DNA of 64,000 nt from an uncultured Acidimicrobiia bacterium (GCA_963698385.1 CAVOQP010000009.1:42500-106499); one strand, 5' to 3'. Counted from the stretch's first letter, positions 24,853-53,795 are shown. Notes: generated by a model not told the origin, from the letters alone. Made by a program: numbers and translations.

Positions 24853-25002
24853 GTTGTCTGTCCCCCCAGCGAAGCTGGGGGGAAGGTCCCTGCCACGGAG
24901 CGAAGCGGAGTGGGAGGTAGGGGGGCCGTGCGTGTGTGCGAGGCGCTGCGCGGCAACTCACACCCCCCTTACCCCCGCCCTGCGGACGGGAGGACAGACA
25001 AC
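24853..25002. mobile_element. MITE-like unit built from two inward-facing REP-like copies
   Basis: 11-bp perfect terminal inverted repeats GTTGTCTGTCC / GGACAGACAAC flanked by TCC on both sides; full ~70-bp copy 24856-24925 and short inverted copy 24963-24999. Confidence 0.5.
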
Positions 25003-25004
25003 TC

Positions 25005-25063
25005 CTCGACGCTCGACGCTCGACGCTCGACGCTCGACGCTCCCGCTCCCGCTCCCGCACCCG
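25005..25063. repeat. Tandem repeats (CTCGACG)x5 then (CTCCCG)x3
   Basis: Read directly from the sequence. Confidence 0.95.
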
Positions 25064-25077
25064 CGTAGCCTCTGGCC

Positions 25078-25521
25078 ATGACCATCGATGTCTGGACCAT
25101 CGTCCGCTTCCTCCACATCATCGGCGCGATCCTGTGGATCGGGGGCCAGATGACCTTCGCGCTGGTGGTGACCCCGGCGCTCAAGCAGGTGGAGGAAGGG
25201 GACGAGCGGGTGTTTGCAGTCCAGACTGCGGTCGCCCGACGATTCGGGAACGTGGTGTCCTGGGTTGGGATCCCCGTACAACTCGCCACCGGGTTTGCTT
25301 TGTCGTTCCGGGTGTTCGACCTCGGCAAGGGCACGATCCCTGCCTACGGATTCTGGCTCGGGTTCAAGATCATCCTCTTCCTGGCGGCGATCATCATCGC
25401 TGCTGTACACGGCATCATGGCTTCGCGCGGAGTCAGTGGACGGACGAGGCTCCTCGCCGACACCGGCATGGTCGTGTCCTTCGGTATCCTCCTCATCGCC
25501 GTCACCCTCGGTGGGGGGTAG
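25078..25521 (+). CDS. Four-TM membrane protein (CopD/DUF2269-like)
   Basis: RFLHIIGAILWIGG and WLGFKIILF pattern; TAGCCT-N6-ATG leaderless signature. Confidence 0.7.
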   Translation: MTIDVWTIVRFLHIIGAILWIGGQMTFALVVTPALKQVEEGDERVFAVQTAVARRFGNVVSWVGIPVQLATGFALSFRVFDLGKGTIPAYGFWLGFKIILFLAAIIIAAVHGIMASRGVSGRTRLLADTGMVVSFGILLIAVTLGGG

Positions 25522-25538
25522 CACCCACGAAGAGCGAG

Positions 25539-25576
25539 TTCGCATAACTCAGCGAACTCCTGTATATTCATACGAA
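25539..25576. promoter_or_regulatory. Tandem ARG boxes (ArgR operator) immediately upstream of argC
   Basis: ttCGCATaactCAGCGaa (25539-25556) and ccTGTATattcATACGaa (25559-25576), 20-nt period, resembling TGCAT-N4-ATGCA; argR is in the operon. Confidence 0.7.
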
Positions 25577-25578
25577 TC

Positions 25579-26604
25579 ATGAGAACGGCGATCTTCGGAG
25601 CATCCGGGTACACAGGTGGCGAGTTGGTGCGCTTCGTGGACGCCCACGACGGCCTCCACCTGGTTCATCTCGGGGCCCACTCCCAGGCCGGTCTCCCCCT
25701 CGGTACGGTGCATCCCCATCTCGCGGGCGGCGATCGGGCACTCGGCTCGAACGACCCTGATGACCTCGGAGAGGTCGACCTCGCCTTCCTCGCGCTCCCC
25801 CACGGTGCCTCGGCCCGAATCGGCAAGACGCTCGCCGACGCCGGCGTCAGGGTCGTCGACCTCGGCGCTGACTACCGACTCGACACGGATGCTCGTTACC
25901 AAACCGCCTACGGCTCCCCCCACCCGTTCCCGGACGACCTGGCCGAGTGGACCTACGGTCTTCCAGAACTGTTCGACTGCACTGGTACCTCCCGGGTCGC
26001 GGCGCCCGGCTGTTATCCCACGGCCACCGTCCTCGGCGTCGCTCCGCTGCTGGCTGCCGGGCTTCTCGATCCGTCCAACATCATTGTCAATGCCGTGTCC
26101 GGTGTGAGCGGTGCTGGGAGGAAACTCGCGGACCAGTTCCTCTTCGGTTCGATCGACGAGGGAGTGGTCGCCTATGCAGTGGGTACGCATCGCCATCGTC
26201 CCGAGATGGAGATGGCCCTCGAGCAGGCGGCGGACCTCGATGGCGTGTCGGTGACCTTCACTCCACACCTGGTCCCGATGCAGAGGGGCATCGTTTCCAC
26301 CACGACTGCCCCGGTCGCCTTGGACCGGGTGACCCGCGCGGACCTCCTGGACACGCTCCGTGACGCCTACGCCGGTCGCCACTTCGTCGAAGTGCTCGAT
26401 CATCCGCCCCAGTCGCGCTGGGTCGTCAACTCCAACCGAGCCATGGTGACCGCCTACATCGACCACTCCTCAGGACAGGTGATCGTCATCGCAGCCATCG
26501 ACAACCTCGTGAAGGGTGCCGCCGGACAGGCCGTTCAAGCCGCCAACGTGATGCTCGGACTCCCCGAGGAGACGGGGTTGCCAATGCACGGATGGATGCC
26601 GTGA
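25579..26604 (+). CDS. argC: N-acetyl-gamma-glutamyl-phosphate reductase
   Basis: GASGYTGGEL, VAAPGCYPTA, HRHRPEM, FTPHLVPMQRGI, IDNLVKGAAGQAVQ. Confidence 0.96.
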   Translation: MRTAIFGASGYTGGELVRFVDAHDGLHLVHLGAHSQAGLPLGTVHPHLAGGDRALGSNDPDDLGEVDLAFLALPHGASARIGKTLADAGVRVVDLGADYRLDTDARYQTAYGSPHPFPDDLAEWTYGLPELFDCTGTSRVAAPGCYPTATVLGVAPLLAAGLLDPSNIIVNAVSGVSGAGRKLADQFLFGSIDEGVVAYAVGTHRHRPEMEMALEQAADLDGVSVTFTPHLVPMQRGIVSTTTAPVALDRVTRADLLDTLRDAYAGRHFVEVLDHPPQSRWVVNSNRAMVTAYIDHSSGQVIVIAAIDNLVKGAAGQAVQAANVMLGLPEETGLPMHGWMP

Positions 26605-26708
26605 ACCAGCGTCGGCCTGCGGCCTCCGAGCACGGGCACGAGCTCGAGCTCGAGCCAGACCCCAGCAATGAGGACAGCACGCGGGGCGGCGGGCACCGTT
26701 TGAGCGAG

Positions 26709-26778
26709 CCCTCCTACCTCCCACTTCGCGTCGCTTCGTGGCAAGGACCTTCCCCCCACCTTGGGCGGGGGGACAGAC
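26709..26778 (-). repeat. Single REP-like ~70-bp copy between argC and argJ
   Basis: Reverse complement GTCTGTCCCCCCGCCCAAGGTGGGGGGAAGGTCCTTGCCACGAAGCGACGCGAAGTGGGAGGTAGG aligns by eye with 24856-24925; preceded by hexamer repeats near 26630-26660. Confidence 0.85.
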
Positions 26779-26809
26779 ATGCATCGATTCCCATCGGAGG
26801 TATCGCCCC

Positions 26810-27970
26810 ATGAGTGTCACCACGCCGAAGGGCTTCACCGCCGGCGGAGCCCACTGCGGGGTGAAGCGGACCGGGGAGTTGGACCTGGCCATCGTCGCCG
26901 CCGAGCAACCCGTCGTGGCAGCGGCGGTGTTCACCCAGAACCTGGCGGCAGCCGCCCCGGTGGTGCTCTCCCGCCAACACGTCACCAATGGCTACGCCCA
27001 GGCGGTCGTCCTCAACTCCGGTACTGCCAACGCCGGGACCGGTTCCACCGGGGAGGTCCATGCTGCCCGAATGGCAACGGCCACGGCCGGCGCTCTCGGG
27101 TGTGCGGTCACCGACGTCCTCGTGTGCTCGACCGGTCCCATCGGCCCGCTGCTCCCGATCGACTCCGTCGAGGACGGCATTGCCGCCCTCGCCCCCATAC
27201 TCGGCAGGGACCGCGAAGCCGGGTCGGCTGCCGCCAGGGCGATCATGACCACGGACACCTACCCGAAGACGTCAGCGTTCATTGCTGCCGATGGTTGGGC
27301 GATCGGTGGGATGGCGAAGGGGGCGGCCATGATCCGGCCCAACATGGCCACCATGCTCGCCGTCATCACCACCGACGTGGCGCTCGGTACTGAGCAGGCG
27401 CAGAGTGTGCTCGAGGCGGCGGTGGCGACCACCTTCAACGCCCTCAACATCGACGGGTGCACCTCCACGAACGACACCGTCATCCTCCTTGCATCGGCGG
27501 ACAGCGGCATCACGGTCGAGACCGACGAGTTCGCTCCTCGGCTGACGGAGGTGTGCGAGTCGCTTGCCCGGCAGATGGCACGTGACGGCGAGGAGACGAC
27601 GAAGGTCGTCGACGTCGTGGTGCAGGGCGCCGCGGACGATCTCGCGGCGCGCACGATGGGTCTCGAGATCACCGATTCCGACCTCATTCGAAGCTCCTTC
27701 TTCGGCGGGGATCCGAACTGGGGCCGGGTCCTGCAGGCACTCGGACAGTCGGGGGTCTCCTTCGATCCGGCCTCGGTCGCGGTGACCTACGAGGACGTCA
27801 CCGTCGCGGCCGGCGGGGTGCAGGTCGCCTATGACCGGGCAGGCCTCATCACCCGACTTCAGGGCGACTTCACCCTCACGGTGGCAGTCGGTGGTGGACC
27901 CGGTTCCGCCCGCATCATCACGACGGACCTCACTCCGGGGTACGTGCGATTCAACGGAGAGCCTTCATGA
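26810..27970 (+). CDS. argJ: Bifunctional glutamate N-acetyltransferase / amino-acid acetyltransferase
   Basis: AIMTTDT, GMAKGAAMIRPNMATML, STNDTV, DPNWGR. Confidence 0.95.
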   Translation: MSVTTPKGFTAGGAHCGVKRTGELDLAIVAAEQPVVAAAVFTQNLAAAAPVVLSRQHVTNGYAQAVVLNSGTANAGTGSTGEVHAARMATATAGALGCAVTDVLVCSTGPIGPLLPIDSVEDGIAALAPILGRDREAGSAAARAIMTTDTYPKTSAFIAADGWAIGGMAKGAAMIRPNMATMLAVITTDVALGTEQAQSVLEAAVATTFNALNIDGCTSTNDTVILLASADSGITVETDEFAPRLTEVCESLARQMARDGEETTKVVDVVVQGAADDLAARTMGLEITDSDLIRSSFFGGDPNWGRVLQALGQSGVSFDPASVAVTYEDVTVAAGGVQVAYDRAGLITRLQGDFTLTVAVGGGPGSARIITTDLTPGYVRFNGEPS

Positions 27971-28878
27971 GCGGTCACAGCCAACCAACCGAGACGCGCA
28001 CCCGGATAGCGGCCACGATGGGCAAGGCACGGATCCTGATGGAAGCCATGCCGTACATTCGTCGCTTCTCGGGAACCATCGTCGTCATCAAGTACGGGGG
28101 GTCGGCGATGGTCGACCCGGACCTCCAGGACAGCTTCGCGGCCGATGTGACCCTGCTGAGCCTGGTCGGCATCAAGCCGATCATCGTGCACGGCGGGGGA
28201 CCGCAGATCTCGGAGGCGATGACCCAGGCCGGGATCGAACCGGAGTGGGTGAACGGTCTCCGGGTCACCGACCAGGCGACGATCAAGGTGGTGCAAGGTG
28301 TATTGGCGGGCCAGGTGAATCCCGAGATCGTTCGCCTCCTCGTGGGCCACGGCGCCAACGCGGCCGGCGTGACCGGGGTGGACGCCGGACTGCTCACAGC
28401 CGTGCCCCGCGACCCCGACCTCGGATTCGTCGGCCGGGTGTCGAAGGTCGACTCGACGCTCATCGACGGGATGCTCGAGCGCAACATCGTCCCGGTGATC
28501 GCTCCGATAGCAAGGGGTGAGGACGGGTTCATCTACAACCTCAACGCCGACACGGCAGCGGGGGCGATCGCTGCTGCCCTCGGGGCCCACAAACTCATCT
28601 ACCTCACCGATGTCGACGGTCTCTACCGGGATCTCGGGGACCGGGATTCCCTCATCAATCGCGCTCGCATCAGCGAGATGCGCGACCTCCTCCCGACGCT
28701 GAGCGGGGGGATGGTCCCCAAGATCGAGTCCTGCCTCAAAGCGATGGAGGCGGGGGTCAGGCAAGCTCACATTCTCGACGGGCGGGTCCAGCACTCGCTC
28801 CTCCTCGAGATATTCACCCCGGAAGGGATAGGAACCATGATCGTTCACGAGGACTGGGAGCCAATCCATGTCAGTTGA
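27967..28878 (+). CDS. argB: Acetylglutamate kinase
   Basis: VIKYGGSAM, VHGGGPQI, GLRVTD, NLNADTAA, GGMVPK, HILDGRV. Confidence 0.96.
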   Translation: MSGHSQPTETRTRIAATMGKARILMEAMPYIRRFSGTIVVIKYGGSAMVDPDLQDSFAADVTLLSLVGIKPIIVHGGGPQISEAMTQAGIEPEWVNGLRVTDQATIKVVQGVLAGQVNPEIVRLLVGHGANAAGVTGVDAGLLTAVPRDPDLGFVGRVSKVDSTLIDGMLERNIVPVIAPIARGEDGFIYNLNADTAAGAIAAALGAHKLIYLTDVDGLYRDLGDRDSLINRARISEMRDLLPTLSGGMVPKIESCLKAMEAGVRQAHILDGRVQHSLLLEIFTPEGIGTMIVHEDWEPIHVS

Positions 28879-29317
28879 CCACCGCCTCATCGTCATTCGG
28901 CGACTGCTGGAGAACCATCGCGTCTCCAGCCAGCAGGACCTCGCCGACCTGTTGGCGGACGAGCAGATAGAGGTGACCCAGGCGACCGTCTCCCGTGACC
29001 TCCAACGCCTCGGGGCGATCAAGATCCGTGACTCGGGTGCCCTCCGCTACGCGGTCCCGGAACAGACGCCCGACGACCCGATAGCGGCGCTCGGGAGGGC
29101 TCTCGCGGACTACAGCCGGAGCATGACTCCGAGCCAGAACCTGCTCGTCATCAGGACGACAGCCGGGGCAGCGCACGTCGTGGCGGCTGCCATCGACGGC
29201 TTCGACGATGAAGCCGTCATCGGGACCGTGGCCGGCGACGACACGATCCTCGTGATCGGTGCCGAGGGCCAGACGGGCCACGACCTCATCGTCCTCCTCG
29301 AATCGATCGGAGCCTGA
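28868..29317 (+). CDS. argR: Arginine repressor
   Basis: [25 protein letters not shown]. Confidence 0.95.
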
Positions 29318-29318
29318 C

Positions 29319-30524
<1,206 letters not shown>

Positions 30525-30545
30525 GGGGCCTTGTGTCTATCGGTG

Positions 30546-30872
30546 CCCCCCTACCTCCCTCTTCGCTTCGCTTCGAGGCAGGGACCTTCCCCCCGCTCTG
30601 CGATCGGGGGGACAGACAGCGGGTGGCAGGAGATGTCTGTCCCCCCAGCGGAGCTGGGGTTGGCGAGCGTCGCGGCGCATTGGCAGGCAGTGTCTGTCCC
30701 CCCAGCGGAGCTGGGGGGAAGGTACCGCCGCCGAAGGCGGGGGTAGGGGGGTGTGAGTTGTCGCGCGGTCTTGTGCCGGAACTCCGTGGCGCACCGGCTG
30801 CCCCCCTACCTCCCTCTTCGCTTCGCTTCGAGGCAGGGACCTTCCCCCCGATCGCAGAGCGGGGGGACAGAC
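30546..30872. repeat. BIME-like cluster of four REP-like copies between argG and argH
   Basis: Reverse copy 30546-30617, forward partial 30635-30659, forward 30692-30751, reverse 30801-30872. Confidence 0.9.
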
Positions 30873-30884
30873 AGGTGGTGCCCC

Positions 30885-32246
30885 ATGGCTGACCCCACGC
30901 TCTGGGGATCTCGCTTCTCCGAGGGTCCGTCCGATGTGCTGTGGCGGTACACCGCCAGCGTCACCGACCGACGAATGCTGACAGACGACATCCGAGGTTC
31001 CATTGCGCATGTGACCATGCTGGGCGAGGTCGGCGCCCTCACCGCGACAGACACCGACCTCCTGCTCCGCGCCCTCGACCAGGTGCGGCAGGAGGCAGAA
31101 CGGGGGTCGTTCTCGTTCACCGAGACGGACGAGGACGTCCACAGCGCCGTCGAGCGACGCGTGATCGAGATCGCGGGCCCGGTGGGGGGGAAGCTCCACA
31201 CGGGAAGGAGCCGCAACGACCAGGTCGCCACCGATCTCCGGCTCCATCTCTCACGGCAGGGGCGGGACCGGATCACGGAGATCCGGGGTTTCGTGGGAGT
31301 GATCGTCGACAAGGCCGAAGCGGTCGGCGAGACAGTGGTTCCCTCGTTCACCCATCATCAGCAGGCACAGGCGGTCCCGCTCGCCCACCACCTCCTGGCC
31401 TACGCCTGGATGCTGTTGAGGGATGCCGAACGTTTCGGTGATGCGCTCGGTCGGATCGAGCAGTCTCCCCTCGGTGCCGGCGCTTCCGGGGGATCGAGCT
31501 TCCCCCTCGACCCGGCCGTCTCCGCCGAGGTGTTGGGCTGGGAGCACCACTTCGAGAACTCGATGGATGCGGTGGCTTCGCGGGACTTCGTGGCTGAGTA
31601 CGGCTTCTGCCTTGCCCAGACCATGACCCACCTCTCACGACTGAGCGAGGAGTTGATCCTGTGGACGACCGCCGAGTTCGACTGGGCCACCTATGGCGAC
31701 GCTTACACGACCGGCAGTTCGGCCATGCCACAGAAGAAGAACCCGGACATTGCAGAATTGGCCCGGGGCCGGTCGGCACGGGTGATCGCGGCGTCGAACG
31801 CGCTTCTCGTCCTTCAGAAGGGGCTCTCGCTGACCTACTTCCGTGACCTGCAGGAGGACAAGGAGATCGTCTTCGAGGCCGATGACATCGTGGCTGCGAC
31901 TCTGGAGGCGCTTGGTGCGCTCGTCCAATCGGCCGAGTTCGATCCTCCACCTCCCAGTTCGTGGGTCACGGCGCTCGACCTGGCCGAGGCGCTCGCGCTC
32001 CGAGGAATCCCGTTTCGTGAGGCCCACCACGCGGTGGGGGCGGTGGTGGCGGGGGTCGCAGCGTCGGGACGGGAGCTTGCCGAGGCCACCATCGACGACC
32101 TCGTCGCGTGCGATGAGCGCTTCATCCCCGCCGACCTCGACGTCCTCGATCCCGTCGCCTCGGTTCGGGCTCGCAAGAGTCGGGGAGGCGGCAGCTTCGA
32201 GAGCGTCCGCGAGCAGATTGCCGAACTGCGGGACCGGCTCGGGTGA
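30885..32246 (+). CDS. argH: Argininosuccinate lyase
   Basis: LWGSRF, EDVHSAVE, KLHTGRSRNDQVATD, TGSSAMPQKKNPD. Start moved to ATG 30885. Confidence 0.95.
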   Translation: MADPTLWGSRFSEGPSDVLWRYTASVTDRRMLTDDIRGSIAHVTMLGEVGALTATDTDLLLRALDQVRQEAERGSFSFTETDEDVHSAVERRVIEIAGPVGGKLHTGRSRNDQVATDLRLHLSRQGRDRITEIRGFVGVIVDKAEAVGETVVPSFTHHQQAQAVPLAHHLLAYAWMLLRDAERFGDALGRIEQSPLGAGASGGSSFPLDPAVSAEVLGWEHHFENSMDAVASRDFVAEYGFCLAQTMTHLSRLSEELILWTTAEFDWATYGDAYTTGSSAMPQKKNPDIAELARGRSARVIAASNALLVLQKGLSLTYFRDLQEDKEIVFEADDIVAATLEALGALVQSAEFDPPPPSSWVTALDLAEALALRGIPFREAHHAVGAVVAGVAASGRELAEATIDDLVACDERFIPADLDVLDPVASVRARKSRGGGSFESVREQIAELRDRLG

Positions 32247-32282
32247 GTGACTACGCTGCCCCGAGGACGGAGGAGCCAGCCG

Positions 32283-32504
32283 ATGAGTGAGAAGGATCCG
32301 CACGAGCTACTGGCAGCCATGGTCGGTCGTGGCATCGCCGTTGTGACTCCGATCGTGCTGGTGCTCATGATCGCCGCCGTGTGGGCGTTCACCGACCAGG
32401 ACCTGGGAGCGGCCGTGCGCACCGGCGCTCTTCCCGGCGTACTCTTCGGCGCGTTTGCCGGGGGGTTCATCGGCATGCTCCGTTCCGTCTGGAACCAGCA
32501 CTGA
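32283..32504 (+). CDS. Small two-TM membrane protein
   Basis: 73 aa, hydrophobic, GGAG RBS. Confidence 0.6.
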   Translation: MSEKDPHELLAAMVGRGIAVVTPIVLVLMIAAVWAFTDQDLGAAVRTGALPGVLFGAFAGGFIGMLRSVWNQH

Positions 32505-32514
32505 CCCGACGGCT

Positions 32515-33426
32515 TCACCCCGTGTAGTCGCGGGGTCCGATCTCGATGATGATCGGGCGATGATCCGAACCAAGGTCCGGCCCGACCTCTCGTGACACCA
32601 CCCCCAAGCGCTCGGTGTGGATGGCGTTGTCGATTGGGAGCTGCCACACGGATCCCACCCGCCACGTCGCCTCTGGTCCGCGCCCTGTGAGGGTGTTGAA
32701 GAGACCGGCGTCGATGAAGACCGTGCGGAAGACACGGCTCCACGGTGTGGCGTTGAAGTCACCGATGACGATGGCCTCCCCTGGCCGCGAACGCGCCCGT
32801 TCGGCGGCCCACGCCAGTTGATCGTCGCGAAGGGCCGCATCGACCTCGGTGACAGGAGCGAGTGGGTGGATACCGATGATGGTCACCCGGTTGATGACCA
32901 CTTCCACGGCTCGGTGGTCGGTGCGGGCGAACCCGTGGTTGACGACGTCGCTCCCGGGGGGGACCAGTGCGATCGTTCCGAAGGCGAAGTGGGGCTCTCG
33001 TGTCGTCACGACGTCATACGGCAGGTCCGCCGCGTCGAGGGCGGTCTCCCAGGCCTCCGTCCCCTCGTGGAGGAAGAGGACATCGGCCTCGGTGTCGAGG
33101 ATCCATTCGATGACCGCCGCGTGCTCGTCGTTGGAGGAGAGGAGGTTGAAGCTCGCGATGATGAGATCGGCGCGGGCCGACGGGACGGCGCCGGCGTAGA
33201 GCGGGATGATCACGGCGACGTTGAGTGCCAGTCCGATGGCGGCAATCGAGGCCGCGGGTAGGGACTGGGCGATCCCTGCGATGAGGAGGACCACGAAGCT
33301 GAGAACGGCCAGTTGGACCCGGAAGTTGGCCACCAGGTCGAGGACCCACCACCGATTGCCGAAGAATGCGGCGGCGCCGGTGAGTGTCACCGCAGTCGCC
33401 AGCACAATGGGAATGGCGCGTTTCAT
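32515..33426 (-). CDS. Membrane-anchored endonuclease/exonuclease/phosphatase (EEP) family protein
   Basis: N-terminal TMs; ASFNLL, FLHEG, IGDFNATPWS, PIDNAI, GSDHRPI. Confidence 0.85.
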   Translation of the reverse strand: MKRAIPIVLATAVTLTGAAAFFGNRWWVLDLVANFRVQLAVLSFVVLLIAGIAQSLPAASIAAIGLALNVAVIIPLYAGAVPSARADLIIASFNLLSSNDEHAAVIEWILDTEADVLFLHEGTEAWETALDAADLPYDVVTTREPHFAFGTIALVPPGSDVVNHGFARTDHRAVEVVINRVTIIGIHPLAPVTEVDAALRDDQLAWAAERARSRPGEAIVIGDFNATPWSRVFRTVFIDAGLFNTLTGRGPEATWRVGSVWQLPIDNAIHTERLGVVSREVGPDLGSDHRPIIIEIGPRDYTG

Positions 33427-33467
33427 CGGGTGAAGCATGGCCCATCCCGCCACGTTGTGCAGGTCGG

Positions 33468-34331: not shown

Positions 34332-34369
34332 GAGGTGCCCCGCGATTGCGTGTGGGTGAACCTACTGAG

Positions 34370-34524
34370 GTACGAGAAGGGAGGTACGAGGTACCAGACC
34401 GACCCGAGACCCTGGCGCCGACATGGAAGTCAGCCGACGACCGGGGGCCGCTCCTCGGCAAGGGTAGATGTCGACGTTCCTGCTCGGGACTCGTACCTCG
34501 TACCTCGTACCTCGTACCTCGTCC
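34370..34524. repeat. Inverted heptamer arms (GTACGAG left; (CTCGTAC)x4 at 34490-34517 right)
   Basis: Read directly from the sequence. Confidence 0.85.
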
Positions 34525-34525
34525 C

Positions 34526-35665: not shown

Positions 35666-35695
35666 GCCCCGAAGCTAGCGAGGCCAGGAGGGACC

Positions 35696-35730
35696 GAGGA
35701 CCGAGGACTGAGGACTGAGGACGGGGGACG
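35696..35730. repeat. Heptamer array GAGGAC(C/T/G) x4 plus GGGGACG
   Basis: Read directly from the sequence. Confidence 0.9.
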
Positions 35731-35738: not shown

Positions 35739-36229
35739 GTCTGTCCCCCCAGCGGAGCTGGGGGGGAAGGGACCCGCAAGCGGAGCGCAGCGGGTAGGGG
35801 GGCTTCGGTGTGCGCTGATGTCCCCCCTACCTCCTCTCTTCGCTTCGCTTCGAGGCAGGGACCTTCCCCCCGCCTGCGGCGAGGGGACAGACATGGGGAG
35901 GCCTGCGCTTTGTCTGTCCTCCCAGCGGAGCTGGGGGGAAGGGACCCGCAAGCGGAGCGCAGCGGGTAGGGGGGTTTCGTGTGCACTGATTCCCCCCTAC
36001 CTCCCTCTTCGCTTCGCTTCGAGGCAGGGACCTTCCCCCCGCCTGCGGCGAGGGGACAGACATGGGGAGGCCTGCGCTTTGTCTGTCCTCCCAGCGGAGC
36101 TGGGGGAAGGGACCCGCAAGCGAAGCGCAGCGGGTAGGGGGGTTTCGCGTGCGCCGATGCCCCCCTACCTCTCTCTTCGCTTCGCTTCGAGGCAGGGACC
36201 TTCCCCCCGCCTGCGGCGAGGGGACAGAC
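35739..36229. repeat. Tandem BIME-like array: three ~170-bp units, each a forward plus a reverse REP-like copy
   Basis: Forward 35739-35802, 35912-35974, 36081-36142; reverse 35822-35892, 35992-36061, 36160-36229; identical ATGGGGAGGCCTGCGCTTT linker between units. Confidence 0.95.
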
Positions 36230-43903: not shown

Positions 43904-43947
43904 CCGCGGCCCAGGCGGCGAACCCAGGGTTCGAGACCACCCTTCTG

Positions 43948-44001: not shown

Positions 44002-44008
44002 TCGATCC

Positions 44009-45319
44009 CTAGCCGAGCGCCTCGACGAGGGAGTCCTCGAAGGCCTGCAGCGTCACTGCGATGTCCTCATCGGTGTGGGCGGCGGACATGAAGAAGGGCT
44101 CTGCGGCATCATCGACCGGGAGCACCCCGCGACCGATCATCCCCATCACCACTTCAAAGTAGAGCGCATCATTGTGGCCGGCCTTGTGTCGGAACTCGGT
44201 GGGGCGTTCCTCGCCGAAGAACACACCGACCATCGACGGGTGGCCGACGATGTGGGCGGGGAGGCCATGCGCCTTGCAGATGGCATCGAGGCCATCCATG
44301 AGCATTCCGCCGACCCGTTCGATCGTCCTGAAGGCCTCTCCGTCGGAGAGCAGGCCGATGGTCGCCGCCGCGGCCGCGGCGGCCACCCCGTTGCCGGAAT
44401 AGGTGCCTGCCTGCGTGATGCCGCCCTCGGCCCACGCGTTCATGATCTCCCGTTTGCCACCGATGGCGGCCACAGGAAAACCGTTCCCCATCGACTTGGC
44501 GAACGTACCGAGGTCGGGGGTGACCCCGAACACTTCCTGGGCTCCGCCGAGGGCCATCCGGAAGCCGGTCTTGACCTCGTCGAAGATGAGGAGGGTGCCG
44601 TACTCGTCGCAGATGCGCCGCAATCCTTCGAGGTAGCCGGGTTCGGGCATGATCCCGAAGCAGTTGCCCATCATGGGTTCGATGAGCATTGCCGAGATCC
44701 GGTGGCCGTCGCGCCGGAACAGCTTCTCCATCTCCTCGAGGTCGTTGAACGGAACGATGCGGACGTAGTCGCGGATGGTGGAGGGGATACCGGACGAGGC
44801 CTGGACGGGGATCGGGTCATGCCGAGACCCCAAACTGCCCAATGCCGTCCCCGAGGTGGAGAAGAGGACGTAGTCGTGCGCCCCGTGGTAGCAGCCCTCG
44901 AACTTCATGAAGAGCTCACGCCCCGTGTATCCGCGGGCGAGTCGGAGAGCGTGCATCGTCGCTTCGGTCCCGGTGTTCGTGAAGCGCATCGCCTCGACGT
45001 AGCCGACGGCCTCGATGACCTTCTCTGCCGCCTCGATCTCTCTCCCGGTGGTCATGGCGAACGTGGTGCCGGCCCGGGCAGCCTCGGCGACCGCTTCGGC
45101 CACCACCGGGTGGCCATGGCCGAGGATGACCGGTCCGAAGCCGAGTTGATAGTCGATGTACTTGGCGCCGTCCATGTCGAACACGTAGGCGCCCTCGCCC
45201 CGGTCGATCACGAGCGTGTCGTCGTCGCCCCAATAGCGGAAGCCACTGGAGACGCCGTTCACGAGCGCCTTCTTACCCCTGTCGAACCATTCCCCGGTTC
45301 GTTCGCCCTGCAATCCCAT
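44009..45319 (-). CDS. Class III PLP aminotransferase, glutamate-1-semialdehyde aminomutase (HemL)-like
   Basis: YIDYQLGFGPVILGH, NTGTEATMHALRLARG, FEGCYHG, LIFDEVKTGFR, GTFAKSMGNGFP. Confidence 0.8.
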   Translation of the reverse strand: MGLQGERTGEWFDRGKKALVNGVSSGFRYWGDDDTLVIDRGEGAYVFDMDGAKYIDYQLGFGPVILGHGHPVVAEAVAEAARAGTTFAMTTGREIEAAEKVIEAVGYVEAMRFTNTGTEATMHALRLARGYTGRELFMKFEGCYHGAHDYVLFSTSGTALGSLGSRHDPIPVQASSGIPSTIRDYVRIVPFNDLEEMEKLFRRDGHRISAMLIEPMMGNCFGIMPEPGYLEGLRRICDEYGTLLIFDEVKTGFRMALGGAQEVFGVTPDLGTFAKSMGNGFPVAAIGGKREIMNAWAEGGITQAGTYSGNGVAAAAAAATIGLLSDGEAFRTIERVGGMLMDGLDAICKAHGLPAHIVGHPSMVGVFFGEERPTEFRHKAGHNDALYFEVVMGMIGRGVLPVDDAAEPFFMSAAHTDEDIAVTLQAFEDSLVEALG

Positions 45320-45494
45320 GGTGGGACTCCTTCTTCTCGTGTGGCCCGATGCCACCAATCAGTACGGCCTTGTCTCACGGACGTGAGTGGATCCGATCAG
45401 GAAGGTCTCACCCCTTCCAAGGTGACGCGGCGAACTGCTCTCGGGAAGGTACCACAGGCCGCGAGCAGCGTGCCAGCCAGGGAACGGGCCGATG

Positions 45495-47712
<2,218 letters not shown>

Positions 47713-47720
<8 letters not shown>

Positions 47721-48399
47721 GCGCCGGTTCCATGCTCTCCACGAAGCTCCGGATCATGACGAGTCCGTCGGCCGAGCGGAGGATCTCCTCCACTGCCCGC
47801 TCAGGGTGGGGCATGATCCCTGCCACATTGCCCGCCTCGTTGGAAATGGCTGCGATGTTGCCCAGCGATCCGTTCGGATTGGTGTCGTCGGAGACCTCGC
47901 CGTTGGCGTCGGAGTAACGGGCGAGGACCTTGCCATTCATGGTCGCAGGGTCGGAGACTGTGAAGTTCCCCTCGTACGAGTTGAGGGGGATGTTGAGTAC
48001 CTGGCCGACCTCCGCCGCGCGAGTCAGGATGGAGTCGGTCGTCTCCACCCGGACGTGGATCGGCCGGCAGATGAAGGTGAGGTCGCGGTTCTGGTGGAGT
48101 GCGCCCGGGAGCATGTGGGCTTCGCACAGGACCTGGAAGCCGTTGCAGATCCCAAGTACCGGCGCCCCCTCGTCCGCGCGTCGTTTCACCTCGGCCATGA
48201 TGGGTGAGAACCGGGCGATCGCACCCGTGCGGAGCGCGTCGCCGTGGGCGAACCCGCCAGGGAGCACGATACCGTCGAACTCCGAGAGGTCCGTTTCGCG
48301 ATGCCACACCAACTCGGCGTCGGCGCCGGCTATCCCGAGCGCCCAGACCACGTCGTGCTCGCAGTTCGTCCCCGGGTAGACGACGACGGCCGCCTTCAT
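47713..48399 (-). CDS. purQ: FGAM synthase glutaminase subunit PurQ
   Basis: PGTNCE, LPGGFAHGD, GICNGFQ, MPHPER. Confidence 0.96.
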
Positions 48400-48638
48400 G
48401 CCTCCACCCGAACCTCGAAGTCATCCATCACCGGGTTGGCGAGCAGTCGTTCGCACATCTCCGTGACTCGGCGCTCGATGTCGGCCGGATCATCTCCCTC
48501 GATGTCGAGTTGGATCTCCTTGTTGATCCTGACCCGAGCCACACCACCGAACCCCATGTCGGAGAGCGCTCGTGAGACCGTCGCTCCCTGCGGATCGGAG
48601 ATCTCGGGGCGTCGTCGTACCACCACGGTCACCTTCAT
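48396..48638 (-). CDS. purS: FGAM synthase subunit PurS
   Basis: DPQGATV, MCERLLANPVMDDF. Confidence 0.95.
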   Translation of the reverse strand: MKVTVVVRRRPEISDPQGATVSRALSDMGFGGVARVRINKEIQLDIEGDDPADIERRVTEMCERLLANPVMDDFEVRVEA

Positions 48639-49504
48639 GTCTGCTCCAGGTAGTCGTCGAAACTCTTGCCCGTGATCAACTCGTAGGCCTCGACGTAACG
48701 GGCACGAGTACCTGCGATGACGTCAGCGGGAAGCCTGGGCGCAGGTGGCGTGTGATCCCACCCGGTCGAGTCGAGCCAGTCACGGACGAACTGCTTGTCG
48801 AACGACGGCACGGGCTTCCCGGGCTGCCATTCGTCGACGGGCCAGTAGCGGGAGGAGTCGGGGGTGAGGACCTCGTCGATGAGGATCACTTCCCCGTCGA
48901 CGATGCCGAACTCGAACTTGGTGTCGGCGAGGATCACGCCCCGCTCCGCGGCCGCGGCGGCGCCCCGCGTGTAGATCGAGAGCGAGAGGTCTCGGAGCTG
49001 TTCGTAGCGGCTGTTGCCGAGCAGTTCCCGAGTACGTTCCTCGGTGATGTTCTCGTCGTGGCCGGAGGTGGCCTTGGTGGCGGGGGTGAAGATCGGCTCC
49101 GGGAGCTTGTCGGCCATGCGGAGGCCAGCCGGGAGATGCTCGGTCGTGGGACCGCCGCCGTCCCGGTACTCCCGCCACGAAGACCCGTACAGGTAGCCGC
49201 GGATGACGCACTCCACCGGGATGACATCGGCTTTCCGCACGATCATCGAACGGCCGGGGTAGTCGAGCTCGTCGCGATCCGCGATGGCGGTGAGATCGGT
49301 CGAGAGGAAGTGGTTGGGGACGTCGAGGAGGTCGAACCAATGCAGGGAGAGACCGGTCAGCACCTTGCCCTTGTCGGGGATCGGATCGTCGAGGATGACG
49401 TCGTACGCGGAGATGCGATCGGTGGCGACGAAGAGGAGCCGATCGGCGTCGACCTCGTAGATCTCGCGGACCTTCCCGGAGGCGATATGCGGTAGTGCCG
49501 GCAC
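48635..49504 (-). CDS. purC: SAICAR synthetase
   Basis: SGKVREIY, ATDRISAYD, KGKVLT, ILADTKFEFG, DEVLTPDSSR, SFDKQFVRDW. Start moved to GTG 49504. Confidence 0.95.
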   Translation of the reverse strand: MPALPHIASGKVREIYEVDADRLLFVATDRISAYDVILDDPIPDKGKVLTGLSLHWFDLLDVPNHFLSTDLTAIADRDELDYPGRSMIVRKADVIPVECVIRGYLYGSSWREYRDGGGPTTEHLPAGLRMADKLPEPIFTPATKATSGHDENITEERTRELLGNSRYEQLRDLSLSIYTRGAAAAAERGVILADTKFEFGIVDGEVILIDEVLTPDSSRYWPVDEWQPGKPVPSFDKQFVRDWLDSTGWDHTPPAPRLPADVIAGTRARYVEAYELITGKSFDDYLEQT

Positions 49505-49523
49505 GGATGGCGATGGTAGTAGG

Positions 49524-49627
49524 AGGAGCGAGGAGCAAGGTGGGGAGAACGAGGAGGTCGAGGTACGAGTACGAGGAGCGAAGGACCGAGGAGGAAGGCG
49601 TTCGTCGTCCGTCGTCCGTCGTCCGTC
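49524..49627. repeat. Heptamer arrays (AGGAGCG-type; (CGTCGTC)x3 at 49603-49623) between yjjW and purC
   Basis: Read directly from the sequence. Confidence 0.8.
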
Positions 49628-49631
49628 CTTC

Positions 49632-50471
49632 CTACACCACCCGCACCTCGATCCCGCGTTCTCGGAACACGGCGGCCGCGGACTCGAGGGCGTCCGGGCC
49701 TGCCTCGTCGAATTCGGGATCATCCACGCCGTGGTGTCGGACGCCGATGAGTTTGAGCGGGGCCCCGAGTGGAGCGAGCCAGTCGGCCATGGCGGCGAGT
49801 GACTTGGGGTGGTCGTTCCAGCCGGGGACGAGCACCAGGCGGACCTCGGTCAGCAGGTCGAGGGCGGCGAGGTGACGGGCGGAGTCGAGCACCTGCTCGT
49901 TGCCCGACCCGGTGAGGCGACGGTGCTCGTCGTCGTCCCAGGCCTTGAGGTCGAGCATGACGCCGTCGATGGTCGGGTGGAGGCGGTCCCAGATGTCGAT
50001 GCTCGTCACCCCGTTGGAGTCGATGAGGATCGTCTTGTTGGCAAATGACGGGTCGGCCTTCAGGGCGGTGGTGAGCGAGACGAGGAAGTCGGGTTGCACA
50101 GTCGCTTCGCCTCCGGAGATGGTCACCCCGGAGGTGAAGGGGGCGGACGGCCGCAATCGATCGATCAGTTCTTCGGCGGTGACGGTCTCGGCGAGCGGGG
50201 TGGAGGACTCGGGACACACCTCGATACAGATGGCACAGCGCGTGCACTTCGGCCACTCGACGGTGACCTTCCCATCGACCCAGGAGAGGGCGTCCTCAGG
50301 GCACGGCTCGATGCAATCCCCGCAGTGGGTGCACAAGCCGATCGTGTACGGGTTGTGGCAGTACACGCAAGAGAGGTTGCAGCCCTGCAGGAAGACGACC
50401 GATCGATTGCCCGGCCCGTCGACGCTGCTGAAGGGCAGGACGTTATTGAGGAGCCCGCGCACCGAGTTCAT
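49632..50471 (-). CDS. yjjW: YjjW-family glycyl-radical enzyme activase (radical SAM)
   Basis: SVDGPGNRSVVFLQGCNLSCVYCHNP (CX3CX2C); ferredoxin insert CTHCGDCIEPC / CTRCAICIEVC; ISGGEAT. Confidence 0.9.
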   Translation of the reverse strand: MNSVRGLLNNVLPFSSVDGPGNRSVVFLQGCNLSCVYCHNPYTIGLCTHCGDCIEPCPEDALSWVDGKVTVEWPKCTRCAICIEVCPESSTPLAETVTAEELIDRLRPSAPFTSGVTISGGEATVQPDFLVSLTTALKADPSFANKTILIDSNGVTSIDIWDRLHPTIDGVMLDLKAWDDDEHRRLTGSGNEQVLDSARHLAALDLLTEVRLVLVPGWNDHPKSLAAMADWLAPLGAPLKLIGVRHHGVDDPEFDEAGPDALESAAAVFRERGIEVRVV

Positions 50472-51987
50472 GACTGAGCACGCGTTTCACCGCTCGACCG
50501 GTCACGCCCTTGTTCTTCTCGGCTCCATACCCGAACGTCGTGCTCCCGTGGCGAGCGCCCTTCTCGGCGAAGTCGACCAGGTCGGACTTCCGCACGAGGT
50601 AGCCGGTGATGCGGATGAAGTCGTTGGAGCCCACGTTGAAGGTGAAGTCCCGCATGCCTCCTGCGAACGCGCCCCGGATGATGTCGACCATCGCCTCGGG
50701 GTTCTCGATGACGGTGTCCTCGACGTGGAAGATGTCGCTGACCCCCGAGGCGAAGCAGTCGTGGTTGGGGGTGACCGCGCAGATGTGCTCGTAGAGGCCC
50801 GGTTCGGTCCCGACGGGGAGTCGCGATCCGACGGTGGAACTGGTGTCGGTGTCCAACCCGGCTTGGGAGTGGAGGAGCGCACGGTCGTTGGTGCCGGCGC
50901 AGTACGGCATCGGACGGGCTTCCACGAATTCGTGGAGCCAATGGACGATCCGATGGGCGAGTGCGTTCGCCTCCACGTCGTGGCCGTAGCGGACGTCCTT
51001 GCCCTCACGGGCGAGGAGCTCCTCCACGGCCTCCGCCAGGCCGACGATCCCGTACATGGCGGTGAATCGGTCGAGGGAGACGAATCCTTCGGTGGCGAGG
51101 AAGTCGTGCTCGAACCACGTGACGTCCTCGACGATGTGGCGGATTCGTGCCTCCATCAACTGGGCCAGCCACTCGGCGACTGTCGGGAGGGTCGAAGCGA
51201 AGAACGCTTCGGTGTCGCCGGTGTGCAGCAGGGCGGCTTCGCGCAGGTCGAGGCGGGAGAGGGTGTGGGAACCGCCGCCCCGCGGCAGCGAGTTGTAGCA
51301 GCTCACCACCCCGTACTCCTCGCCAAGGTCCCGCACCATGAGAGGGTGGTTGACGAAGTGGGGTTTGGCGGTGACGAAGACGGTCTTCACTCCCTCGAGG
51401 ATGAGGTCGTCGGGCGTGACATCGGGATCCACCCGCAGCGTGAGGTTGGGGACGACCTGTTTCAACTCCCGGTCCACCCGGAGGACGGATCGGCCGACCC
51501 GCGAATCATGTGGGCCGAGGTTGGCATGGGCGAACGCATCGGGGATGAGGCGGTCGGTGAGGCGGAGGAAGCGCCGCATCCGATAGTCGAGGTCTTCGTC
51601 GTCGATCCCGCCGACGTAGGGTTCGAGGAGCGTGTCGAGGTCGCCCAGGTAGACCGGATAGCCGGTGATCGACGGCACGTTGGCGTACATGACGAGCAGG
51701 AAGTCAAACGCCTCATCGAGGGTGGTGGGCGGGTCCATCTCGAGGAAGGCCGACCCGGTGGTGAACGCCTTGGCATAGTCGGGGAGGATGTAGCGGGGTC
51801 GGTAGGGGGCCGTTCCCTCGTACAGGTCGCAGATGATCCGTTTGTTGAGGGCCTCGGCCACGTCCTCGGGGAGGTCGACGTAGGCCTGGGAGCTCTCGGC
51901 GAGGTAGGCGAGGTGGTGGCGACGTTGGTGGAAGGAGAGTGTCGGGTCTTGGAGCACCCGCCGGACTTCGGCCTGCAGTTCGTTCAT
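50443..51987 (-). CDS. yjjI: YjjI-family glycyl radical enzyme
   Basis: ICDLYEGTAPYRPRYILPDY, PVYLGDLD, DAFAHANLGP, VVSCYNSLP (Cys loop), MRDFTFNV, IRITGYLVR (Gly loop); 514 aa, matching E. coli YjjI motifs as recalled. Confidence 0.92.
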   Translation of the reverse strand: MNELQAEVRRVLQDPTLSFHQRRHHLAYLAESSQAYVDLPEDVAEALNKRIICDLYEGTAPYRPRYILPDYAKAFTTGSAFLEMDPPTTLDEAFDFLLVMYANVPSITGYPVYLGDLDTLLEPYVGGIDDEDLDYRMRRFLRLTDRLIPDAFAHANLGPHDSRVGRSVLRVDRELKQVVPNLTLRVDPDVTPDDLILEGVKTVFVTAKPHFVNHPLMVRDLGEEYGVVSCYNSLPRGGGSHTLSRLDLREAALLHTGDTEAFFASTLPTVAEWLAQLMEARIRHIVEDVTWFEHDFLATEGFVSLDRFTAMYGIVGLAEAVEELLAREGKDVRYGHDVEANALAHRIVHWLHEFVEARPMPYCAGTNDRALLHSQAGLDTDTSSTVGSRLPVGTEPGLYEHICAVTPNHDCFASGVSDIFHVEDTVIENPEAMVDIIRGAFAGGMRDFTFNVGSNDFIRITGYLVRKSDLVDFAEKGARHGSTTFGYGAEKNKGVTGRAVKRVLSHELGARAPQ

Positions 51988-52003
51988 CGGTTGTCCCGTG
52001 TGA

Positions 52004-53659
52004 CTACCCCGAAGTGTAGGGGAGCGAGGCGGTCACCCATGCGGAGACGAGGCCCTGCAGGCCGTCCAGGGAGACGGTTCCCTGGCCGAGGCAGACGTCG
52101 TGGAATGCCTTGATGTCGAAGTCGTCCCTGAGCGCTTGCTCGGCCGCGGCTCGCATCGCCTCGATCTCGAGCCGGCCGATCATGTACCCGAGGGCTTGGC
52201 CGGGATCGGCTATGTACCGATCGATCTCGCCCTCGCATTGGCTGCGGGTCTTCGGTGAGTTGTCGACCATGTAGGTGATGGCGCGCTCGCGGCTCCACCC
52301 GAGGGCGTGGAGCCCGGTATCGACGACCAGGCGACACGCGCGCATCGAGTCGGCGGCCAGCATCCCGATGCGATCCAGCTCCGATGAGTAGAGCCCCATC
52401 TCATCGGCCAGGCGCTCCGTGTAGAGACCCCACCCCTCGTTGTAGCCGGGGAGGTACAACTGGCTGTGGAGGGCGTGGAGCCCGTCGATCTCGGCTGCCA
52501 GCGCGAACTGGAGGTGGTGGCCGGGGACACCCTCGTGGAAGGTCGTCGCCTCGACCTCGAACGTCCCCCACCGCGATGGGTCAGCGGCGTTGAAGAAGAA
52601 CCTGCCGGGGCGGTCCCCGGCCGGCGACGAGTAGTAGGCGAGCGCCCCGACGTCGGTGGACTCGACCTCGCAGGCCGCCACTGGCAGTGTCGCGAACCAA
52701 TCCTTGGCCGCGGCGGTGGCCCGAGCGAGCGCGGCCTGGGCATCGGCGACAAGGACATCCGCGTCCGAGTAGTGGAGGTCGGGGTCGGAGCGGAGGCGGT
52801 CGAAGATGGCAGGCAGATCGTTGAGGCCGAGCACGGGACCGGCGATCGAGCGGTACTCGTCGGCGAGCTTCTCGACCTGCTCGAGGCCGATCCGGTGCAC
52901 CTGCTCGGCTGTGTAGGCGTTCGTGGTGGAGCCACGCACCCGCCTGGCGTACAGGGCGTCGCCCTCGGGGAGATGGGTGAGACCGGGCTGGTCGTCGTTT
53001 CGCGCCGCCGGGAGCGTCACGGTGTCGAGCATGGTGCGATAGGAGGCGATGGCCGGGCGGACCGAGGACTCCACAGTCACGGTCAGGCGGTCCCGCCAGC
53101 CTTCGAACCCGTCGGCTGGTTCGGCCTGGCCGAGGATCGGGTCGCGGTCGATCGGTGAGGCCAGGTACCCATCGAGCCGGCTGATCATGGCGCTCACGTG
53201 GGTCCGGATGGGGACGACCCCGATCGCCGCTCCATCGATCAAGGCGTCCTGGAGTTGGGCGACGAGCATCGGGAGCTTGGCGAGCTTGGTGAGATAGCGC
53301 TCACCATCTGAAGCGGTGACGAGCGGCTGGCGGGGGAGGTGGGCAAAGAGAGCCACCAGCACGCCGACCTCGGGATTGGGAGCATTGAGCATGGCCCCCC
53401 ACTCCAGTTGGGCAGCCATGTCCTGCGCGGTGTCGGCCACGGTCCTGGTCGTAGCCAGCTCGGCCGAGGATGATGCGGCGGTGGCTGTAGCCCGCGCAGC
53501 AAAGTCGACGAGGGCCTGCTGGTAGGAGGCCACCCCCTCGGCGGAGAAGTCCTGCCACTCCTCCAAGTGGGTGAGGTCGCCCGCCCACAAGGCCCAGAGG
53601 TGGTCGTGGGAGTGCCTGAGCCCCCAGTAGTCGTCGGCGAGGTCGTGTACGGAGGACAT
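52004..53659 (-). CDS. DUF885-family protein (no signal peptide)
   Basis: TFHEGVPGHHLQ, YNEGWGLYTE, RACRLVVDTGLH, EIDRYIADPGQALGYMIG, FDIKAFHD. Confidence 0.9.
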   Translation of the reverse strand: MSSVHDLADDYWGLRHSHDHLWALWAGDLTHLEEWQDFSAEGVASYQQALVDFAARATATAASSSAELATTRTVADTAQDMAAQLEWGAMLNAPNPEVGVLVALFAHLPRQPLVTASDGERYLTKLAKLPMLVAQLQDALIDGAAIGVVPIRTHVSAMISRLDGYLASPIDRDPILGQAEPADGFEGWRDRLTVTVESSVRPAIASYRTMLDTVTLPAARNDDQPGLTHLPEGDALYARRVRGSTTNAYTAEQVHRIGLEQVEKLADEYRSIAGPVLGLNDLPAIFDRLRSDPDLHYSDADVLVADAQAALARATAAAKDWFATLPVAACEVESTDVGALAYYSSPAGDRPGRFFFNAADPSRWGTFEVEATTFHEGVPGHHLQFALAAEIDGLHALHSQLYLPGYNEGWGLYTERLADEMGLYSSELDRIGMLAADSMRACRLVVDTGLHALGWSRERAITYMVDNSPKTRSQCEGEIDRYIADPGQALGYMIGRLEIEAMRAAAEQALRDDFDIKAFHDVCLGQGTVSLDGLQGLVSAWVTASLPYTSG

Positions 53660-53675
53660 GGGAGGAGCCTACGGT

Positions 53676-53795
53676 CGAGTCCCGAGTCCCGAGCCCCGTC
53701 TCATCGGCCTCGTTCCAGGTCTGTCCCCCCGACGAAGTCGGGGGGAAGGGGGCCCCGCTGTGTCCGAGTGAAGCGAGGACCTCAGCGGGTAGGGG
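53676..53795. repeat. Heptamers (CGAGTCC)x2-3 plus one REP-like copy (53719-53795)
   Basis: GTCTGTCCCCCCGACGAAGTCGGGGGGAAGG...GGGTAGGGG. Confidence 0.85.

Follow-up and report, generated by a model that had tools for sequence, protein, structure and literature searches.

What are the short hairpin-forming units that recur between genes in an uncultured Acidimicrobiia bacterium, and which enzyme could multiply them? The question is raised by a stretch of 64,000 nucleotides (GCA_963698385.1 CAVOQP010000009.1:42500-106499; hereafter the window). A first-pass annotation, made from the sequence alone, had described the units as a family resembling repetitive extragenic palindromes (REPs), selected to fold as single-stranded DNA (ssDNA), and had suggested as their partner an HUH enzyme of the REP-associated tyrosine transposase (RAYT) type or another nuclease encoded elsewhere. 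Our analysis points to a small protein of the DUF559 family, and we consider it rather probable that repeat and protein form a partnership like that of REP and RAYT, run by a nuclease that would recognize the folded strand. The genome that contains the window (G000; 2.91 Mb, 13 contigs, 66% G+C, 96% complete) was compared with three congeners (G001, G002 and G003; 70-80% DNA identity to G000) and with a family set of 22 genomes.

The window contains 12 full and 2 partial units at five intergenic loci, in agreement with the ~14 full or partial copies at five loci that had been reported at first pass. The head of the unit (GTCTGTCCCCCC, at most one mismatch) occurs 15 times in the window, compared to 1.6 +/- 1.3 times in shuffled sequences (largest value 4). 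The consensus reads (T)GTCTGT-CCCCCC, a variable stem of 3-4 bp with its loop (hairpin 1), GGGGGG-AAGG, hairpin 2, and GGTA-GGGGGG-(C). Hairpin 2 exists in four subtypes (A-D) of 20-40 nt, with an outer stem and usually an inner mini-hairpin of the GC-GAA-GC type. The second half had previously been read as a repeat of GCGAAGC/GCGGAGC; these motifs are present, and the second half is in addition a covarying hairpin in its own right. Across 25 subtype-A copies, 96.5% of the cells are paired (87.1% in shuffles) and both partners vary in 7 of the 19 pairs, affecting 45 cells where 14 are expected. The covariation score was not matched by any shuffle or slid register, and compensatory changes are found in all three helices. 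These results bear out the earlier claim that the stems covary, and support a single-strand structural constraint on the units.

The loops of the hairpins are strand-specific. Among the 59 full copies in the genome, hairpin 1 carries C(GNA)G in 32 and the complementary C(TNC)G in 3 (binomial p 4e-7, uncorrected for shared descent), and hairpin 2 carries C(GNA)G in 32 and a GNA loop closed by T-G in another 3, with no TNC loop (p 6e-11, likewise uncorrected). In each of the three TNC cases, a GNA hairpin has its apex inverted, and the GNA loops recur on varied stems (AGC/GCT, AAC/GTT, GAC/GTC, GCC/GGC, GGC/GCC and ACC/GGT). The GNA loops thus lie on the element's own strand, as the first-pass annotation had it (32 against 3 for hairpin 1 and 35 against 0 for hairpin 2), and genome-wide they are strongly biased rather than random with respect to strand. 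A second variant of the repeat (V2, discussed below) follows the same pattern: among the loops listed for G016 and G014, the triloops are GNA in 30 cases, TNC in 1 and other in 6, and 29 tetraloops are GNNA, of which 24 (GCCA, GTCA, GCTA) are not GNRA; the V2 loops include GGA, GCA and GAA as well as GCCA and GTCA.

Mini-hairpins with a C-G-closed GNA triloop or GNNA tetraloop are far more stable as DNA than as RNA, resist nucleases and are poorly bound by single-stranded DNA-binding protein (SSB), and the closing pair matters for such loops (PMC13037366; PMC3201870). The loops of G000 and of V2 fit the DNA mini-hairpin rule, GCGNAGC/GCGNNAGC (PMC13037366), and not the RNA GNRA rule, which is the best available, albeit indirect, argument for a single-stranded DNA form. 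Loop chemistry therefore favors folding as ssDNA rather than as RNA or a cruciform. Nearest-neighbor DNA folding did not separate the two strands (means of -19.4 and -17.7 kcal/mol); as the energy model lacks terms for GNA loops and triplexes, folding energies cannot decide which strand folds. The proposed selection for folding as ssDNA accordingly holds with regard to the structural constraint and the DNA-type, strand-asymmetric loops, it gains nothing from the energies, and the single-stranded state itself is what we infer. Folding of the runs as a G-quadruplex or i-motif was set aside, as each G-run has a complementary C-run on the same strand and the stems covary. A search of the window with Rfam 15 gave no match at the gathering score except one tRNA.

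The two G-rich segments of the unit are mirror repeats (GGGGGGAAGG and GGTAGGGGGG in the genus of G000). The mirror is kept, with a changed run length, in genus g3 (TTCCCCC, GGGGGAAAGG and GGTAAGGGGG), and it is also kept in a third variant (V3) in G007 (CTCCCCC, GGGGGAGG and GGAGGGGG). One strand carries a C-run and two G-runs in succession (CCCCCC ... GGGGGGAAGG ... GGTAGGGGGG) from which C-G*G triads could form, and the GNA loops share that strand with the potential purine-motif triplex. As far as can be judged from the order of the runs, the units are compatible with a purine-motif intrastrand triplex. In G000, the length of the stem is weakly linked to that of the 3' G-run (p 0.007), a link confounded by descent.

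The units are not confined to the five loci of the window: a pattern search of G000 gives 59 full copies, nhmmer 77 matches at 48 loci and the covariance model 85 matches. Some units stand alone, others form inverted doublets that combine two subtypes, and others again are arranged in tandem arrays. When four calls of a crude gene finder that placed units inside genes are set aside, each of the 48 loci is intergenic; the four calls are over-extended open reading frames (ORFs), not in-frame insertions. Convergent, divergent and tandem gaps are occupied at background proportions, and the base before the unit is T in 38 and the base after it C in 42 of the 59 full copies. A common module of ~20 nt (nnnGAGTTGTCGCGnnG) comes after many units, so that some subfamilies reach past the 3' G-run. 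The covariance model detects the family in 15 of the 22 genomes, which belong to 5 of the 7 genera of the taxonomic family, and a loose pattern is found in many Acidimicrobiia metagenome-assembled genomes (MAGs) and in a few records labeled as other phyla, the latter being real copies or chance matches. The element pattern has no copy in viral contigs, and there is thus no link to phages.

Empty and filled sites in relatives, a comparison that had been recommended at first pass, show that the copies are lineage-specific insertions. Alignment of 13.5 kb of the window to the three congeners covered loci 1-4, each of which lacks units in two or three of these genomes; in three cases the stop and start codons there abut or overlap. 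At locus 1 (24856), the spacer of the relatives measures 35-85 bp without units, and the site is empty in G002 and G003. The spacer at locus 2 (26709) is ~0 bp in G003 and 14 bp in G002, and G001 has variant V2 at the same site. The four units of locus 3 (356 bp) are absent from G001 and G002, where the stop and start codons overlap, and for the array at locus 4 the orthologous spacers of G003 (~100 bp) and G001 (~20 bp) contain no units. Among public reads, the sole holder was a low-coverage contig set with 11% of the sampled words, from which no insertion polymorphism within the population emerged. A different arrangement was observed in G001 (L152, G001:C21:23140-26442, at ~1740-2130), which has four tandem copies of ~36 nt resembling the end of the neighboring host gene together with a short unit; such duplication of the host flank with the unit points to slippage or to repeated copy-in at one site.

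The candidate partner emerged from annotation of a hot spot of 17 copies (C6:1.293-1.311 Mb). The sole small DUF559 gene of G000 (C6:1308082-1308456, minus strand) encodes 124 amino acids, matches PF04480 with 118.3 bits (cut-off 20.6) and PDB 3HRL with 1.5e-19, and has a Vsr-like PD-(D/E)XK fold. The motif DF...E-x-DG..H is kept in 7 of 8 aligned relatives, and nuclease catalysis is predicted. In gene orientation, the locus has the order [subtype B forward]-33 nt-ORF-7 nt-[subtype A reverse], with further units on both sides, and DUF559 is the only gene found between units. The "other nuclease encoded elsewhere" of the first-pass annotation thus has a candidate in a gene of a predicted nuclease family, located outside the window and bracketed by units. 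The hot spot itself (C6:1293000-1312000) is an envelope/glycan cluster with glycosyltransferases, an ABC-2 permease and SLH-like repeat proteins, and resembles a variable island. Integron attC sites were dismissed for its copies, which have mixed orientations and no GTTRRRY core.

The association extends to the family. Units are present within 600 bp of 10 of the 11 small DUF559 genes in the 22 genomes, a type of gene that the first-pass annotation had named only among those to be checked, compared to none of 9 genes for long proteins with a weak DUF559-like domain (Fisher p 1e-4); the background chance of a unit that near a given gene is at most ~4% per gene. Genomes with a small DUF559 gene also have more units (Mann-Whitney p 0.011), a comparison confounded by assembly quality. 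Moreover, DUF559 genes are flanked by the repeat variant found in their own genome. V2 (ATCCCCCC-N3/4-GGGGGGATGGG ... GGGAGGGGGG) is restricted to G001, G016, G014 and G009, with 34-69 pattern matches each and none in the other 18 genomes, and DUF559 genes bracketed by V2 are found in G001, G016 and G009 only (p 0.003). The sole exception is the fragmented genome G014, which has V2 repeats and in which no V2-bracketed gene was found. The relatives G000, G002 and G003 have neither V2 repeats nor a V2 gene, and G001 has two DUF559 genes, one bracketed by the variant of the window (V1) and one by V2. Likewise, a V3-bracketed gene is present in G007 alone, where V3 has 12 matches, compared to a single match in the other 21 genomes together. 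In pairwise scores the DUF559 protein of G000 is nearest to that of the V1 gene of G001, and the V2 gene of G001 is equidistant from all. Next to another gene of the family, that of G013 (L142, G013:C130:2529-5562), three tandem copies of a less GC-rich hairpin repeat (CACCTTCCCC-GTAAAC-GGGAGAAGG...) with a period of ~113 bp precede the gene; they may represent a fourth cognate variant.

Gene and units are gained and lost as whole blocks. The two blocks of G001 (834 bp and ~590 bp) lie between genes that are adjacent in G000, with spacers of 50 bp and 135 bp, and the V1 block of G001 is bounded by inverted heads (CTCTGTCCCCC and GGGGGACAGAG). Reciprocally, the 816-bp block of G000 is absent from G003, where the convergent stop codons overlap as CTAG. 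Within G000, the flanks of the block (C6:1306633-1309938) recur at C7:4779-7309 with 94% and 78% identity, separated by a 48-bp spacer in place of the block; this second copy represents either a paralog of the region or a variant strain whose sequence was binned with the MAG. Presence and absence of blocks at orthologous sites would also be expected if DUF559 were a selfish homing endonuclease gene that lands in doublets by cutting them and is copied in by repair, the units being old or spread by other means. Vsr-like homing endonucleases such as I-Bth0305I exist, the gene is always found between or beside units, and doublets of the type [B forward][A reverse] resemble a block without its gene. 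However, each variant has just one copy of the gene in a genome, although dozens of doublets could serve for landing, the doublet spacers have no clear homology to the flanks of the gene, and homing leaves unexplained why a repeat variant is missing from congeners without the gene. We therefore regard homing as a minority possibility, with some chance of being correct. What the genomes show is a partnership and not its direction: the nuclease may drive the repeats, which we prefer, or the gene may home into them.

Could a transposase account for the same observations? A RAYT, or an HUH Y1 transposase of the IS200/IS605 type, that acts on hairpins in ssDNA and moves REPs or their paired form (REPINs) would fit the strand-specific hairpin loops, the inverted doublets and the GTAG within GGTAGGGGGG, which resemble REP/REPIN. 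PF01797 (Y1_Tnp), however, has no match in G000, which is 96% complete, or in the 22 family genomes, whereas 6 of 14 control genomes match; the GTAG of V1 is absent from V2 (GGGAGGGGGG) and V3 (GGAGGGGG); and there is no lagging-strand bias. The HUH/RAYT/IS200-605 candidate that was first put forward is therefore abandoned as extremely unlikely. Only slightly less remote is the view that the units are miniature inverted-repeat transposable elements (MITEs) of a conventional insertion sequence, for instance the IS110-family element beside one doublet. The sole IS110-family transposase gene lies ~230 bp from a head-altered doublet (C10:599383-599571), and composite blocks can carry inverted GTCTGTCC heads. 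Single units are nevertheless asymmetric (GTCTGTCC ... GTAGGGGGG), without terminal inverted repeats or target duplication, and the known behavior of IS110 elements is insertion into REP-like repeats, not their mobilization. G000 has one IS110 gene only; in the relatives, the search for transposases covered the Y1 type, of which none was found. In the IS110 region (C10:598110-599571), the first unit of the neighboring doublet starts with GAGTGTCC instead of GTCTGTCC, and by analogy with REPs in other bacteria the element may have inserted at the head of the unit.

A further explanation is that the units serve the host as structural elements, either as stabilizers of mRNA 3' ends or terminators, as sites for supercoiling or nucleoid proteins, or as priming sites, and that DUF559 merely lies in a hot spot; the units would then be kept by host selection and multiplied by slippage and recombination. 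E. coli REPs and BIMEs (bacterial interspersed mosaic elements) have such host roles. The strictly intergenic location of the 48 loci, some of them inside operons, agrees with this explanation, as do the mini-hairpins that mark primase sites and exclude SSB (PMC13037366), the tandem arrays and the host flank duplicated with a unit, which point to slippage, and the large distance of most units from any DUF559 gene. Against it, the sites are dispensable, as the spacers of the congeners measure 0-50 bp and stop and start codons may even overlap. The units prefer no type of gap, have no fixed orientation to transcription or replication, and lack a T-run after the hairpins, and co-occurrence with a variant-specific DUF559 gene in three variants would be unexpected from neighborhood alone. 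On these grounds a host-serving role as the full explanation appears unlikely, even if it deserves to be kept in view.

The lines of evidence converge: the adjacency of gene and repeat, the co-occurrence of their variants, the presence or absence of whole blocks, and the strand-specific loops of the DNA type argue that DUF559 and the folded-DNA repeat belong together. In the mechanism that we propose for a partnership driven by the nuclease, the units would constitute a lineage-specific REP/BIME-like family of structured intergenic repeats of the Acidimicrobiia. The unpaired strand would form two hairpins, each capped by a highly stable C(GNA)G DNA triloop, and the 3' G-run would bind along the C:G stem in a purine-motif intrastrand triplex. 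DUF559, encoded between inverted units, would recognize the folded unit or its ends and nick there. Repair of the break, or copying from other copies, could then multiply and homogenize the units and occasionally move them, as well as the block of gene plus units. The nuclease activity, its target, the triplex and the route of copying are alike inferred.

Several observations weigh against this proposal. The counts of loops and stems are inflated by shared descent. No target-site duplication was found in 59 flanks; replication-strand bias is absent (19 leading, 24 lagging), and the transcription-sense orientation is weakly disfavored (5:13, p 0.10). Taken as a whole, the block of G000 lacks inverted heads at its ends, and the architecture of the blocks downstream of the gene varies. 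G003, G004, G010 and G014 hold 11-17 units and G011 holds 7, without a detected small DUF559 gene; these genomes are fragmented short-read MAGs, from which a gene between repeats is easily lost. Conversely, G013 has a DUF559 gene and no units of this model, with another repeat in the flanks. Each variant has a single gene copy in a genome, which leaves most units as orphans that could persist or spread independently of the gene. The DUF559 protein tree supports only the g3 clade, and from the proteins we claim neither co-divergence of enzyme and repeat nor horizontal transfer. Finally, we know of no enzymology for any DUF559 protein.

Within the window, all five loci lie between co-directional genes, with units oriented either way relative to transcription, and among them are the argC-argJ spacer and, in the same operon, the spacer behind the following gene. 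The first locus is a tail-to-tail doublet between two co-directional genes. Its full unit, of subtype A (24856-24925, plus strand; pattern and nhmmer profile), has the apex AGC-GAA-GCT and a DNA fold of -18.4 kcal/mol (z -3.0). It is paired with a partial unit read from the sequence (24963-24999, minus strand), a short form without hairpin 2. This short form (GTCTGTCCTCCC-GTCCGCAGGGC-GGGGG-TAA-GGGGGG) comprises a C-run, a capped hairpin, a G-run, a 3-nt loop and a G-run, and corresponds to a minimal layout of the TMECO type discussed below; its fold by itself is not significant (z -0.9). The argC-argJ spacer holds a full subtype-A unit (26709-26778, minus strand; pattern and nhmmer profile), the apex loop of which is CAA, as noted previously.

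The third locus contains four units: a full subtype-A unit with apex GATC-GCA-GAGC (30546-30617, minus strand; pattern and nhmmer profile), a truncated unit limited to the head and hairpin 1 (30635-30659, plus strand; by reading of the sequence), a full subtype-C unit with TACCGCCGCCGAAGGCGGGG as hairpin 2 (30692-30751, plus strand; pattern and nhmmer profile) and a full subtype-A unit with apex GCTCTGCGATC (30801-30872, minus strand; pattern). The units at 30546-30617 and 30801-30872, which have the same orientation, are identical but for an exactly inverted 11-nt apex between their C6/G6 arms (GATCGCAGAGC and GCTCTGCGATC). Together with the TTC loops, which are flipped GAA hairpins, this inversion suggests template switching or recombination inside the hairpin.

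The fourth locus is a BIME-like tandem array (35739-36229, both strands) of three 169-173-bp repeats, each consisting of a forward subtype-B unit, a spacer and a reverse subtype-A unit. The full subtype-B units are found at 35739-35802, 35912-35974 and 36081-36142 (plus strand), and the full subtype-A units at 35822-35892, 35992-36061 and 36160-36229 (minus strand). The fifth locus holds a full subtype-D unit (53719-53797, plus strand; pattern and nhmmer profile) with a long hairpin 2, the apex GAC-GAA-GTC, a degenerate 3' G-run (GGGGAG) and a DNA fold of -23.2 kcal/mol (z -4.2). Short heptamer or hexamer tandem arrays adjoin units at 25003-25055, 35693-35730 and 53672-53695; they consist of (CTCGACG)x5 followed by (CTCCCG)x3, of the GAGGACY type and of the GTCCCGA type. 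At the site of the four units of G000, G003 has (GACGAGA)x5 and an inverted partner (L168, G003:C61:3480-3800).

How do the units relate to known systems? Similar to REP/REPIN-RAYT and BIME, they are short, GC-rich, hairpin-forming and strictly intergenic, present in tens of copies. As for REP and BIME, they form singlets, inverted doublets and tandem arrays alternating two unit types in opposite orientation, the latter being exemplified by the three [B+][A-] repeats at 35739-36229, with their period of 169-173 bp. As for REP and RAYT, a single-copy enzyme gene is bracketed by inverted units, and each variant has its own gene. In contrast to RAYT, however, the enzyme is a Vsr-like PD-(D/E)XK protein (DUF559) of ~120 amino acids and not an HUH tyrosine transposase, and in contrast to REP the units have two hairpins and a mirror G-run, and the 5' GTAG signature is not conserved across the variants.

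The resemblance to the BoxC/PIT/TMECO repeats concerns a different set of features. In vitro, these repeats adopt a triplex; in genomes they are confined to intergenic positions, show no strand bias and pair as inverted doublets in which two types are always combined (Holder et al. 2015, PMC4666352); copy number of BoxC/TMECO differs sharply between close relatives, and no link to any gene or mobile element is stated (PMC4666352). The units described here share with BoxC/TMECO the succession of C-run, loop, G-run, loop and G-run on one strand, the intergenic location, the lack of strand bias, the inverted pairs of two types and the sharp differences in copy number among close relatives. They have no similarity to the TMECO consensus 5'-CCCTCNCCC N3-6 GGGNGAGGG N3 GGGNGAGGG (PMC4666352), and both of their loops are covarying mini-hairpins (9-12 and 20-45 nt), a 3-nt loop 2 being limited to 24963-24999. 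Their host, moreover, belongs to the Actinomycetota, unlike E. coli. In E. coli K-12, a canonical TMECO (CCCTCGCCC-CTCTG-GGGAGAGGG-TTA-GGGTGAGGG) lies ~170 bp downstream of the DUF559 gene ycjD, the stop codon of which is located inside a partial TMECO copy.

The loops themselves have counterparts elsewhere. The d(GCGNAGC)/d(GCGNNAGC) mini-hairpins are found at ssDNA phage origins, plasmid ssi sites and early promoters of phage N4, where they are read by proteins in single-stranded or extruded DNA (PMC13037366; PMC3201870). The units share with them the C-G-closed GNA/GNNA loops on short G:C stems; unlike those single replication or transcription sites, the motif here caps two hairpins of a dispersed chromosomal repeat. 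The telomere palindromes of the actinobacterial genus Streptomyces also have C(GCA)G loops, with sheared G:A triloops, fold as ssDNA and are read by dedicated proteins. In contrast to these terminal sequences, which serve end patching of linear replicons, the units are internal, dispersed and intergenic.

To our knowledge, a mobilizing or maintaining enzyme is known only for RAYT-linked REP-like repeats, no partner has come to light in 30 years for the BoxC/TMECO repeats, and the very large DUF559 family has no known function. Full-text searches of the literature turned up no publication connecting DUF559 or YcjD to REP, BoxC or triplex repeats. As a tentative generalization, more doubtful than the partnership itself, DUF559 proteins could be structure-specific nucleases that read folded ssDNA modules, each made up of a mini-hairpin and a G-run as third strand, in a third repeat-enzyme partnership beside IS-MITE and RAYT-REPIN, with the 0.6-0.8-kb block as the autonomous form, the singlets, doublets and arrays as its dependants, and E. 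coli BoxC/TMECO with YcjD as the same system. The partnership, if confirmed, would provide a function for DUF559, account for one class of orphan repeats and bring to light another natural protein that recognizes non-B DNA. The Acidimicrobiia offer an unusually clean natural experiment, with three variants, matching bracketed genes (bar one fragmented genome) and reciprocal empty sites. The units also explain why short-read MAG assemblies break at these sites, and the partnership is directly testable with a 124-residue protein and 70-nt oligonucleotides. Relative to the literature, the repeats and their gene are a variant of the REP/RAYT kind with a new enzyme pairing, and a structured relative of BoxC/TMECO.

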